Positions 17,057-46,896 of a DNA stretch of 64,000 nt are shown piece by piece; position 1 is the first letter of the stretch, and each line of letters starts with the position of its first letter. Source of the DNA: Escherichia coli. Its GTDB lineage: Bacteria > Pseudomonadota > Gammaproteobacteria > Enterobacterales > Enterobacteriaceae. Location: NCBI RefSeq assembly GCF_045037415.1, contig NZ_CP173438.1. One strand, written 5' to 3'. The notes beneath the pieces were generated by a model. That model made no database searches, was not told where the DNA came from, and saw only the letters and a list, made by a program, of their open reading frames with translations. Position numbers and translations under genes: made by a program.

Positions 17057-18565
<1,509 letters not shown>

Positions 18566-18753
18566 CTAAAGTCTCCAAAAAATTATTATCGGCAATGTCG
18601 AAACTTGCCGTTATATCTGCCACCGGAACGGGGTAACAGAGTTTATGTTTTACCAGGGCGACCGTATCCTGCCGGAAGCGCTGGTTATTCACAATCGATT
18701 TAACACACCATTTACATTAAATTTTAGTGCTCAGCGACACTATTTTTCATCAG

Positions 18754-18961
18754 GTTGCACTCTCTCACATTTTTTGCGGTTGCACCTTTCAAAAATGTTA
18801 ACTGCCGCAGAGAAAAAGTCTGAGTTATTTTTTTAATCCCTGTCATATCGATTTCGTTTATTAACATTTCATTCATTTTTAAGCTTGCTACGCAGGTCAC
18901 ATTTAACATGGTTGCACAAAGTTGCAACATCATGGATATTTCACGATAACGTTAAGTTGCA
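18754..18961. promoter_or_regulatory. put control region with five GTTGCA PutA operator motifs
   Basis: GTTGCA at 18754-18759, 18779-18784, 18911-18916, 18921-18926 (palindromic GTTGCAAC) and 18956-18961 in the putP/putA divergent intergenic. Confidence 0.7.
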
Positions 18962-18987
18962 CCTTTCAGAACAACAGGAGTAATGGC

Positions 18988-21900
18988 ATGGGAACCACCA
19001 CCATGGGGGTTAAGCTGGACGACGCGACGCGTGAGCGTATTAAGTCTGCTGCGACACGTATCGATCGCACACCACACTGGTTAATTAAACAGGCGATTTT
19101 TTCTTATCTTGAACAACTGGAAAACAGCGATACTCTCCCGGAGCTACCTGCGCTGCTTTCTGGCGCGGCCAATGAGAGCGATGAAGCACCGACTCCGGCA
19201 GAGGAACCACACCAGCCTTTCCTCGACTTTGCCGAACAAATATTGCCCCAGTCGGTTTCCCGCGCCGCGATCACCGCGGCCTATCGCCGCCCGGAAACCG
19301 AAGCGGTTTCTATGCTGCTGGAACAAGCTCGCCTGCCGCAGCCAGTTGCTGAACAGGCGCACAAACTGGCGTATCAACTGGCCGATAAACTGCGTAATCA
19401 AAAAAACGCCAGTGGTCGCGCAGGTATGGTTCAGGGGTTATTGCAGGAGTTTTCGTTGTCATCGCAGGAAGGCGTGGCGCTGATGTGTCTGGCGGAAGCG
19501 TTGTTGCGTATTCCCGACAAAGCCACCCGTGACGCGTTAATTCGCGACAAAATCAGTAACGGTAACTGGCAGTCACACATTGGTCGTAGCCCGTCCCTGT
19601 TTGTTAATGCCGCTACCTGGGGGCTGCTGTTTACCGGCAAACTGGTTTCCACCCATAACGAAGCCAGCCTCTCCCGCTCGCTGAACCGCATTATCGGTAA
19701 GAGCGGTGAACCGCTGATCCGCAAAGGTGTGGATATGGCGATGCGCCTGATGGGCGAGCAGTTCGTCACGGGCGAAACCATCGCGGAAGCGTTAGCCAAT
19801 GCCCGCAAACTGGAAGAGAAAGGTTTCCGTTACTCTTACGATATGCTGGGCGAAGCCGCACTGACTGCCGCAGACGCACAGGCGTATATGGTTTCCTATC
19901 AGCAGGCGATTCACGCCATTGGTAAAGCGTCTAACGGTCGTGGCATCTATGAAGGTCCGGGCATTTCAATCAAGCTGTCGGCGCTACATCCGCGTTATAG
20001 CCGCGCCCAGTATGACCGGGTAATGGAAGAGCTTTACCCGCGTCTGAAATCACTCACCCTGCTGGCGCGTCAGTACGATATTGGTATTAACATCGATGCC
20101 GAAGAGGCCGATCGCCTGGAGATCTCCCTCGATCTGCTGGAAAAACTCTGTTTCGAGCCTGAACTGGCAGGCTGGAACGGCATCGGTTTTGTTATTCAGG
20201 CTTATCAAAAACGCTGCCCGTTGGTGATCGATTACCTGATTGATCTCGCCACCCGCAGCCGTCGCCGTCTGATGATTCGCCTGGTGAAAGGCGCGTACTG
20301 GGATAGTGAAATCAAGCGTGCACAGATGGACGGCCTTGAAGGTTATCCGGTTTATACCCGCAAGGTGTATACCGACGTTTCTTATCTTGCCTGTGCGAAA
20401 AAACTGCTGGCGGTGCCAAATCTAATCTACCCGCAGTTCGCGACGCACAACGCCCATACGCTGGCGGCAATTTATCAACTGGCGGGTCAAAACTACTACC
20501 CGGGTCAGTACGAGTTCCAGTGCCTGCATGGTATGGGCGAGCCACTGTATGAGCAGGTCACCGGGAAAGTTGCCGACGGCAAACTTAACCGTCCGTGTCG
20601 TATTTATGCTCCGGTCGGTACACATGAAACGCTGCTGGCATATCTGGTGCGCCGCCTGCTGGAAAACGGTGCTAACACCTCGTTTGTTAACCGTATTGCC
20701 GACACCTCTTTGCCACTGGATGAACTGGTCGCCGATCCAGTCACTGCTGTAGAAAAACTGGCGCAACAGGAAGGGCAAACTGGATTACCGCATCCGAAAA
20801 TTCCCCTGCCGCGCGATCTTTACGGTCACGGGCGCGACAACTCGGCAGGGCTGGATCTCGCTAACGAACACCGTCTGGCCTCGCTCTCTTCAGCCCTGCT
20901 CAATAGTGCACTGCAAAAATGGCAGTCCTTGCCAATGCTGGAACAACCGGTAGCGGCAGGTGAGATGTCGCCCGTTATTAACCCTGCGGAACCGAAAGAT
21001 ATTGTGGGCTATGTGCGTGAAGCCACGCCGCGTGAAGTAGAACAGGCGCTGGAAAGTGCGGTTAATAACGCGCCAATCTGGTTTGCCACTCCTCCGGCTG
21101 AACGCGCGGCAATTTTGCATCGCGCTGCCGTGCTAATGGAAAGCCAGATGCAGCAACTGATTGGTATTCTGGTGCGTGAAGCCGGAAAAACCTTCAGTAA
21201 CGCCATTGCCGAAGTGCGCGAAGCGGTCGATTTTCTCCACTACTATGCCGGACAGGTGCGGGATGATTTCGCTAACGAAACCCACCGTCCATTAGGGCCT
21301 GTGGTATGTATCAGTCCGTGGAACTTCCCGCTGGCTATTTTCACCGGACAGATCGCTGCCGCACTGGCGGCAGGTAACAGCGTGCTGGCAAAACCGGCAG
21401 AACAAACGCCGCTGATTGCCGCGCAAGGGATCGCCATTTTGCTGGAAGCGGGTGTACCGCCAGGCGTGGTGCAATTGCTGCCAGGTCGGGGTGAAACCGT
21501 GGGCGCGCAACTGACGGGTGATGATCGCGTGCGCGGGGTGATGTTTACCGGTTCAACCGAAGTCGCTACGTTACTGCAGCGCAATATCGCCAGCCGCCTG
21601 GACGCTCAGGGTCGCCCTATTCCGCTCATCGCTGAAACCGGCGGCATGAACGCGATGATTGTCGATTCTTCAGCACTGACCGAACAAGTCGTAATAGATG
21701 TGCTGGCCTCGGCGTTCGACAGTGCAGGTCAGCGTTGTTCGGCACTGCGCGTGCTGTGCCTGCAAGATGAGATTGCCGACCACACGCTGAAAATGCTGCG
21801 CGGCGCAATGGCCGAATGCCGGATGGGTAATCCGGGTCGCCTGACCACCGATATCGGTCCGGTGATTGATAGCGAAGCGAAAGCCAATATCGAGCGTCAT

Positions 21901-45347: not shown

Positions 45348-45560
45348 TTGTCCCGTAAAATGACAGGAATTGTCAAAACCTTTGATCGCAAAAGCGGCAA
45401 AGGATTCATTATCCCCTCCGACGGTCGTAAAGAAGTCCAGGTCCATATTTCCGCATTCACTCCCCGCGACGCAGAAGTGCTTATACCAGGATTACGCGTG
45501 GAATTTTGCCGCGTAAATGGCCTGCGTGGACCAACAGCGGCAAATGTTTATTTGTCTTGA
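45348..45560 (+). CDS. cspH: CspA-family protein CspH; start uncertain
   Basis: ORF-track start is TTG at 45348 ([12 protein letters not shown]…); alternative ATG at 45360. Confidence 0.8.
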
Positions 45561-46858
45561 TGGAGAGCGCACGCTGGTATGCGTACTTCATTCACGATTT
45601 GCGTAAAACCGGCCAACGAACACATGCCCTGCGCATTTCGCTCTTCACATCCTGCCAGGGTCAGTTTCACCTCTCCGGGCGGCGTATTTAATGACAGCGG
45701 CGTTTTATCACGCATCTGCTGTAAAGTCTGGAAGACCAGCGAAACCTGAATCCACTGGCTGTTATCGCTGAGCCGACGCCAGCGTTCAAACACCAGTTCA
45801 CCCCCTGGCGGCGTGTTATCCGGCTGACCTGGAAGCGTCCAGTTGAGCTCCAGTGCGCCGCCGAGATTTGCCAGATTAGTATCGTGTCCGGCGATAAACA
45901 GCACTGAAGTGGGTAATGTCACACCATACACCTGTTTTTGCGGTGGATGGGGCGCCAACGCTGTCATGATCAAATCCAATAACGGGGTGGCGCGACTGCG
46001 GGCAACCTCTGGTGTGCGTTGCAGCAAATAAAACTGCGCGTTATGTAGACTTAGCAAGGTGTTCCACTGGTGTGAATCGGTGATCCTTCCCCACCCCGGC
46101 TCCGGCATTCCCTGTGCTTGTTGCAGGAGAAATATCTCCGTCAGCATTGATGCGAGGCTTACCGCACCGGTTAATGAGACATTGTCGGCGCTCACCTTGA
46201 GTTCCGATGGTAATGCCTGCGTTAATGAACAGCTTTCGTCCTGTTTCTCACGGTTAAGGCACAAGTTTGATTGCGGGAAATTAAGCACCCGTTCCAGTTC
46301 GCGAAACGCCGTTTGCCGATGCCCGGTAAAGTCAGCAATTGACCCTCCTGCCCTACTGAGGATCGCGTCAGTCACGTTCGCGTTATCCAGTTGGCAAACG
46401 CCAGTTTTTAGAGGATTAAATAACGGATCGGGACTGGACGTATCTGCCTGGGTATGTACGGTTATTGCACAGTCAGGTGCCAGCCCGGCGGCGAAGGCTT
46501 CGCCTGTTTTACGGGTACGTTCGTCGACATCAGCAATAATCGCGACCTGACCTGGCTGCGGGCAGCCCTCTTTTGCCAGCAATCCGTCGGCCACCAGACG
46601 CTGGCGTTGGTAATGTCCGAGATAAGCGATTAGCTCACCACCGCGCGGTGTCAGCCAACCCAGTTTTACCGGCCAGGTTGGCCATGCGTCAGGGGTGACA
46701 TCCTGCATCAGTTGCGTGGCCTTGGTTGGTGCACGCACACCGTGACGACTGACAATCACCACACTTTCCAGCTTCAGCTCCGGCTCACTCTGAGCGAATG
46801 CAGATTTCGGTGTTAACGGAATCAGAAGAGATAAGAATGGGATCAAGATCGCTTTCAT
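45548..46858 (-). CDS. appA: Periplasmic acid phosphatase/phytase AppA
   Basis: ORF 45548..46888; start set at ATG 46856-46858 ([12 protein letters not shown]…); RHGVRAP motif; 3' end overlaps cspH 3' end by 13 bp. Confidence 0.9.
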
Positions 46859-46896
46859 CGATATGTTTCCGCTTTTCATATCCGACATTATTGATT

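Follow-up and report, generated by a model that had tools for sequence, protein, structure and literature searches.

Overlapping 3' ends of appA and cspH, and a four-residue AppA extension, at the gfc island position of Escherichia coli

Introduction

Convergent gene pairs that overlap tail to tail are well known in bacteria, and the overlap is usually incidental. In a typical pair, the 3'-3' overlap is short and the stop codon of one gene lies within the last codons of its partner. The pair described here involves appA, the product of which is in E. coli K-12 a periplasmic acid phosphatase and 6-phytase (PDB entries 1DKL and 7Z1J), encoded in the locus appCB-appX-appA. The non-consecutive disulfide near the carboxy-terminus of AppA has been described before (PMC9181005, PMC4624244). 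In strain MG1655 (NC_000913.3, 1040617-1041915), the protein has 432 residues and ends in VNEARIPACSL, directly followed by the stop codon. Downstream of the gene lie a hairpin and etk, which is convergent to appA; etk-etp-gfcEDCBA and an IS1D separate the appA and cspH flanks. The seven-gene group 4 capsule island (gfcABCDE-etp-etk) is present in some E. coli and absent from others; within phylogroup B2, etk-etp-gfc has been found only in an STc28-related group (PMC8715443).

Here we describe the same locus in a 64,000-nucleotide stretch of E. coli DNA, which we call the window. A first-pass annotation of this DNA, made from the letters alone, had remarked that the AppA tail is longer than the K-12 ending, given there as ...IPACSL, and had linked this difference to the gfc junction.

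Results

The appA–cspH junction

In the window, the genes torS, yccM, gnsA, ymcE, cspG and cspH (plus strand) are followed by appA (minus strand) and appB. The coordinates of the features around the junction are collected in Table 1. The 3' ends of appA and cspH, on opposite strands, share 13 nucleotides and form a convergent overlapping pair. This pair resembles other bacterial examples in its short overlap and in having a stop codon within the last codons of the partner, but differs from them in being one form of a dimorphic locus, the other allele of which puts about 9 kb between the two genes. The TGA stop of cspH (45558-45560) is located inside the last codons of appA. Conversely, the appA stop, the complement of TTA at 45548-45550, falls inside the GTT-TAT of cspH, using the T of GTT and the TA of TAT. 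The Gln, Asp, Lys and stop codons of appA are wholly antisense to the Val-Tyr-Leu-Ser-stop end of cspH, and the His codon has one base in common with the cspH stop. On the cspH side, the window is homologous to K-12 up to 45551/45560, and on the appA side the homology starts again at 45569; about 8 nucleotides (45561-45568) are present in neither K-12 flank.

Table 1. Features of the appA–cspH junction, in window coordinates.
Feature	Position	Strand	Basis and remarks
cspH coding sequence, 70 residues, ends ...ANVYLS-stop	45348..45560	+	Open reading frame list; identical arrangement annotated by RefSeq in matched genomes
appA/cspH tail-to-tail overlap, 13 nucleotides	45548..45560	.	Open reading frame coordinates; same overlap annotated in EC596 and CFT073
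appA coding sequence	45548..46858	-	Open reading frame list; 436 residues from MKAILIPF...; frame open upstream to an ATG at 46888
AppA extension His433-Gln434-Asp435-Lys436 and TAA stop	45548..45562	-	Direct reading and translation
Site of the about 9-kb etk-etp-gfcEDCBA island in gfc-positive genomes	45561..45568	.	Comparison with gfc-positive genomes
Ala431-Leu432 codons, GCT CTC	45563..45568	-	Position of K-12 Ser-Leu (AGT TTG); junction table and pairwise alignments
Cys430 codon, last cysteine of AppA	45569..45571	-	Invariant in the alignment of 20 sequences

When translated, the minus strand of window positions 45548-45583 gives the 3' end of a 436-residue AppA. Compared with K-12, Ser431 is replaced by Ala and the four residues His-Gln-Asp-Lys are added (...CALHQDK versus ...CSL). 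The first-pass annotation was correct in calling the tail longer and in the K-12 ending that it gave, and K-12 AppA does not share the carboxy-terminus of the window protein. It was also right in placing the divergence at the gfc junction, which lies exactly at the boundary of gfc presence and absence, with the tail tracking the gfc state. However, its proposal that the last appA codons come from junction-specific sequence has to be abandoned in favour of the antisense strand of cspH and a few spacer-like bases. As the Gln, Asp, Lys and stop codons lie on the cspH antisense strand, the extra codons are not new sequence. The Ala-Leu-His codons before them can be aligned with the short appA–cspH spacer of gfc-less relatives. 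The Ala431-Leu432 codons find their better alignment in this spacer (TCT CTT or ACT CTT), and among the sequences compared these two codons also occur as ACT CTC, TCT CTC, AGT TTA and AGC TTA.

A simple terminator scan of the junction found no terminator-like element between appA and cspH. Folding of the junction gave unremarkable z-scores for both strands (-1.2 and -2.1).

Within the end of cspH itself (window 45505-45558, plus strand), an 8-bp stem UUUGCCGC...GCGGCAAA is present, in which 45505-45512 pair with 45537-45544, followed by the U-rich run UGUUUAUUUGUCUU. The stem and run could be the terminator of cspH, located inside the overlap region. The loop is long, so the stem was missed by the simple scan; its folding z-score is -1.2, and K-12 has the same sequence.

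The AppA and CspH proteins

The window AppA belongs to the AppA equivalog family NCBIfam NF007552 (841.8 bits, cut-off 585), the profile of which stops at residue 432, and to Pfam family PF00328, His_Phos_2 (186.5 bits, cut-off 23.6). The catalytic motifs RHGxRxP (R38, H39, G40, V41 and R42) and HD (H325 and D326) are present and invariant in the alignment. Cys430, the carboxy-terminal partner in the putative non-consecutive, DsbC-dependent disulfide of the window protein, is present and conserved in all 20 aligned sequences. CspH belongs to the equivalog family NCBIfam NF012008, with 176.1 bits (cut-off 141) over residues 1-70 of 70 (Pfam PF00313, CSD).

The window protein and K-12 AppA share the gene and its locus, the residues of the catalytic motifs and each of the eight cysteines. 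The two differ at the end, the 432-residue K-12 protein finishing in ...CSL and the 436-residue window protein in ...CALHQDK, with the 3' end of the gene overlapping cspH instead of being followed by a hairpin and etk. The Cys-x-Leu-stop ending typical of Escherichia and Kosakonia is not found in the window, where the protein runs on with HQDK. This is a terminal length variant, and it gives no ground for excluding the protein from the family because other genera carry other tails. Following the last cysteine, the tails in the family are varied and include SL, GL, AL, AVAE, AVMADINR, Q and HI.

AppA chains in the PDB match residues 23-432 of the window AppA with an E-value of about 1e-275. These chains end at CSL, and none of the matched chains includes the extension. 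In the AlphaFold model of the window protein, the mean pLDDT is 91 overall and 96 for residues 421-430, while residues 431-436 have a value of 68 and no secondary structure. One assembled E. coli-type contig reads CALHQER, the penultimate Leu codon of cspH being CTC instead of TTG, which leaves CspH unchanged. The tail appears to be weakly constrained, as the change from DK to ER follows a synonymous codon change in cspH. Given its variability, the low model confidence and the varied tails among genera, the tail is probably a neutral, flexible appendage. The sequence of the four extra residues would be set by the cspH codons, with no selection for AppA function. For the biology of AppA, little consequence is to be expected of an extension that is short, variable, predicted to be flexible and located after the last structural cysteine.

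Other small length differences of AppA were observed. The appA frame contains ten further codons upstream of the annotated start (window 46859-46888, minus strand), and its start is annotated inconsistently: RefSeq uses the MKAIL start and some database entries have the 446-residue form (our protein cluster P0007). AppA of O157:H7 (Z1486, positions 20437-21741 of contig L008) is annotated with 434 residues, two more than in K-12, and has the usual CSL end. In another E. coli AppA (P0004), Glu-Pro is duplicated immediately behind the signal peptide (QSEPEPELK), so that the mature amino-terminus is the site of a second small polymorphism in length.

Frequency of the overlap in E. coli

When complete E. 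coli genomes were searched with a 301-nucleotide query across the junction, 1673 of 5426 (about 31%) gave a contiguous match, indicating a direct cspH-appA junction; in the remaining genomes, the query was split into separate cspH and appA parts. The K-12-type appA end, with the hairpin downstream of it, occurs in 3743 complete genomes, and together the two classes comprise 5416 of the 5426. A shorter, 60-nucleotide junction query was found in 1595 genomes at a coverage of at least 80%, and was identical in 419 among 1596 matched genomes. All six of the junction genomes that were sampled (five across the identity range plus CFT073) encode CALHQDK. In CFT073 and the other sampled junction genomes, RefSeq annotates a 1311-nucleotide appA that overlaps cspH, and the protein cluster of the 436-residue AppA has 7419 member sequences. 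As an annotated variant of the protein, the 436-residue form is known already, and it is a common, old allele. The literature that was searched contained no account of the origin of the overlap allele, and a full-text search with the tail peptide retrieved no relevant paper.

CFT073, a phylogroup B2 strain, has an AppA (WP_024182233.1, 436 residues) that belongs with that of the window in one allele class, with the CALHQDK tail and the 13-nucleotide overlap with cspH. The two proteins differ at residue 425, which is Val in the window (NEVR) and Ala in CFT073 (NEAR); the Val variant is the one in the 419 genomes that match the 60-nucleotide junction exactly. The gfc-less state of CFT073 fits the reported restriction of etk-etp-gfc among B2 strains (PMC8715443).

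State of the gfc island

The seven genes of the group 4 capsule island are not present in the window, and there is no room for them at this position because appA and cspH overlap. The window represents the "absent" state of the known gfc polymorphism. However, its empty site is more than simple absence, having its own 9-13-nucleotide difference that removes the appA stop, as well as distinct last codons of cspH; neither was described in the literature searched. The island is located at the appA–cspH position in K-12, O157:H7, APEC O2-211, EC11, E. albertii and the non-coli contig L013. In the E. coli and other Escherichia genomes of which the sequence was read directly, all gfc-less genomes have the long tail and all gfc-positive ones have ...CSL-stop, a pairing that leaves aside two distant gfc-less relatives (L014/L015 and L016) with Cys-x-Leu-stop. 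The tail thus differs with gfc presence; a tail identical in all strains irrespective of gfc would have spoken against the first-pass reading.

By eye, no target-site duplications or inverted repeats were found at the island edges of K-12, E. albertii and L013. From these edges, the insertion looks clean and would fall within an 8-nucleotide spacer. Among K-12, E. albertii and L013, the island genes from etk to gfcB are 83-94% identical and appB is 87-91% identical; as these values are similar, the island appears to be old and to have diverged along with its hosts.

A further rearrangement was seen in E. coli strain 410 (NZ_CM132941.1, positions 4076-5214 of contig L011), where cspH and gfcA are absent together with the 5' portion of gfcB, and an IS1 adjoins what is left of gfcB. 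The deletion is associated with this IS1 and affects the promoter end of the gfc operon, close to the position of IS1D in K-12.

The two alleles outside E. coli

An overlap with identical breakpoints is present in five divergent Escherichia lineages: E. whittamii, Escherichia sp. E1V33, strain EC596 and two records that bear the name E. coli, E69 and SCPM-O-B-8794. Their tails read CSLHQDK or CTLYQDK, and their appA genes are 83-89% identical to that of the window at the nucleotide level. A scan of genome contigs with the exact peptide pattern gave five loci, with none from E. albertii, E. fergusonii, E. marmotae or E. ruysiae; sequences from E. albertii and from the uncultured relatives were reached via protein clusters and the contigs encoding them. 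In E. albertii and L013, the island occupies the same position and AppA ends in CSL-stop. The lineage of L013 contains both alleles, as a second contig, L026, has no gfc genes and an AppA ending in SLYQDK, while that of L013 ends in SL-stop. Between these two contigs, 4 of 1299 nucleotides differ in appA and 0 of 500 on the cspH side, and the AppA proteins are identical in 429 of 432 residues.

The last nine nucleotides of cspH are allele-specific, even though the differences are synonymous. They read CTC TCT TAA in gfc-positive alleles and TTR TCY TGA in overlap alleles, and the two alleles differ here at three to five positions also on identical flanks. One contig (L018) has the cspH end CTC TCT TGA, which looks like a mosaic of both. 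At residues 431-432, the overlap allele exists in two forms, AGT/AGC TTA (L003, L004 and L026) and ACT/TCT/GCT CTC (L002, L005 and the window). Going by these codons, two separate deletions, or conversion from co-resident gfc-positive alleles, would be needed to produce both forms.

Distant relatives of the junction

Distant AppA homologues (E. albertii, Kosakonia and P0030) end in Cys-[S/G/A]-Leu, and those of other genera have unrelated short tails. Because these homologues end in Cys-x-Leu and the NCBIfam profile stops at residue 432, the short ending is the ancestral one for the protein. The locus of P0030, with an AppA that is 64% identical, is not syntenic and was of no help. In two uncultured gfc-less relatives, appA adjoins cspH without overlapping it; their AppA proteins are 77% (L014 and L015, obtained in two separate runs) and 79% (L016) identical. 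These contigs go back to SRR26188688, SRR26188687 and SRR33454298. In L014/L015, CGL-TAA is followed by a 12-nucleotide spacer and the cspH stop, and in L016, CSL-TAA is followed by an 8-nucleotide spacer (TGCACTCT) and the cspH stop.

The overlap junction can be aligned with those of L014 and L016 with a net loss of 9-13 nucleotides that covers the appA stop (for instance, L014 TCTCTTCATTCAGGAAAGATAAACA with L005 TCTCTCCAT-CAGGACAAATAAACA), the alignments being 40-55 nucleotides long and having several equally good solutions. The bases after Cys430 in the overlap alleles (TCT/ACT/GCT CTC CAT/TAT CAG GA...) match the spacers of the relatives (TCT CTT CAT TCA GGA; TGC ACT CTT). In gfc-positive alleles, the appA edge reads TAATGCA and the cspH edge TTAAGAGAGATAAACA; in L016, only CTCT stands between these two, and the gfc-positive site corresponds to the L016 site with about 9 kb in place of CTCT. 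L016 also contains a five-nucleotide direct repeat, ATGCA...ATGCA, around exactly 12 nucleotides (AGTTTGTAATGC-type).

As candidate sources of the junction, deletions from K-12 between microhomologies at the island edges (TTTAT and ATA) were considered; the predicted products differ from the junction observed.

Discussion

The window carries the gfc-less allele, in which appA and cspH overlap by 13 nucleotides; it is probably an old empty-site allele that lacks the original appA stop. That the longer tail is a private stop-loss mutation or an error of sequencing or assembly has next to no credibility: the only thing in its favour was the doubt of the first-pass annotation about the K-12 sequence, and it is refuted by the junction counts in complete genomes, the 60-nucleotide junction alone being identical in 419 of them, and by the RefSeq annotation of the long AppA and the size of its cluster. 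A functional explanation, in which the tail or the overlap has been selected, either by altering DsbC-dependent folding or stability or by coupling appA and cspH via antisense transcription, is improbable. The tail does directly follow the cysteine of the non-consecutive disulfide, the allele persists across species, and finding no terminator-like site between the genes makes antisense read-through plausible. Against selection, however, the tail varies (HQDK, YQDK and HQER) in step with synonymous codon changes in cspH, many different short tails follow the cysteine in the family, the model of this region has low confidence and no secondary structure, and the folding of the junction is unremarkable. 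Read-through antisense transcription as such is possible at a pair arranged in this way.

We also consider it unlikely that the junction is the scar of a deletion, in which a gfc-positive, K-12-like ancestor lost the island of about 9 kb and the deletion clipped the appA stop, fusing appA into the 3' end of cspH. Such an event would be in line with the gfc-positive state of E. albertii, with an island as old as its flanks and with Cys-x-Leu-stop as the ancestral AppA ending, and the near-identical flanks of L013 and L026 would fit a recent event. However, the bases at the junction (window GCTCTCCAT... and cspH end TTGTCTTGA) are not matched at the island edges of gfc-positive alleles (TAATGCATAAAAAAG... 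and ...CATATTAAGAGAG) and do match the spacer of gfc-less relatives, no microhomology joint between the K-12 edges gives the junction, and the breakpoints are identical across lineages that differ by 11-17% in appA. Because the spacer-like bases are absent from gfc-positive alleles, deletion of the island by itself cannot yield the overlap junction. We therefore favour descent of the window allele from a site in which the island was never inserted, a polarity suggested by short contigs (1.7-4.3 kb) from two uncultured relatives and by the logic of the alignments. Against this polarity, E. albertii, the most divergent named Escherichia that was examined, is gfc-positive with CSL-stop. The overlap itself, its association with gfc absence and its commonness are much firmer than this polarity.

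If the site was never occupied, the ancestral state would have been an appA stop, a spacer of 8-12 nucleotides and the cspH stop, with no overlap, as in the two distant relatives. The overlap allele would have arisen from it when a net of about 12 nucleotides was lost, the appA stop among them, and replication slippage at a repeat like the ATGCA of L016 would fit a loss of this length. Lacking its stop, appA would be translated past Cys430 through two or three codons of former spacer and then through four codons antisense to the end of cspH, up to a TAA provided by the complement of the conserved GTT-TAT. The K-12-type allele would have resulted when the gfc island of about 9 kb entered the same spacer without damage to either gene end. 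Both alleles may have coexisted since early in the genus, with homologous recombination in the flanks exchanging one for the other.

The pattern at the end of cspH could mean that the two alleles come from sites that had already diverged, with crossovers rarely resolving near the heterology; this reading is based on the cspH stops, which match those of the two types of empty site (TAA in L016 and TGA in L014). Tentatively, and with somewhat more doubt than confidence, the overlap and gfc-positive alleles might be seen as an ancient dimorphism derived from two such diverged empty sites, older than the splits between E. coli, the cryptic Escherichia and possibly E. albertii, and kept or repeatedly re-exchanged across species by recombination in the flanks. 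If true, two diverged empty sites would explain why the last nine nucleotides of cspH are allele-specific on identical backgrounds, and the AppA tail would be a handy sequence marker of the state without capsule export.

In phytase engineering, the numbering of AppA and the notion of "wild-type" are taken from K-12 or B-type strains, and the 436-residue form is encoded by roughly one in three E. coli genomes. By the tail, or by the 13-nucleotide overlap, a genome without the group 4 capsule export island can be recognised at a glance. The locus shows cleanly, and on a small scale, how an old presence/absence polymorphism of an island shapes the ends of neighbouring genes, and as a convergent pair with no intervening terminator, appA and cspH could be used for the study of antisense read-through.

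Database sequences around the locus

Several database entries deviate at or near this locus. In E. coli HS-02 (NZ_CP172818.1, positions 3037-3300 of contig L024), the overlap junction is directly followed by about 260 nucleotides of very G+C-rich, low-complexity sequence in place of the appA 3' end, and the annotation of the gene is that of a frameshifted pseudogene; this looks more like an artefact of assembly or polishing than like biology. In CFT073 (contig L025, positions 18176-20919 and 29255-30496), torS and agp, the latter the glucose-1-phosphatase paralogue of appA, are annotated as frameshifted pseudogenes near the locus. A 317-bp contig in an assembly of Nocardioides antri (NZ_VUJW01000157.1, L006) encodes residues 25-129 of E. 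coli AppA with 98% identity and is almost certainly E. coli contamination.
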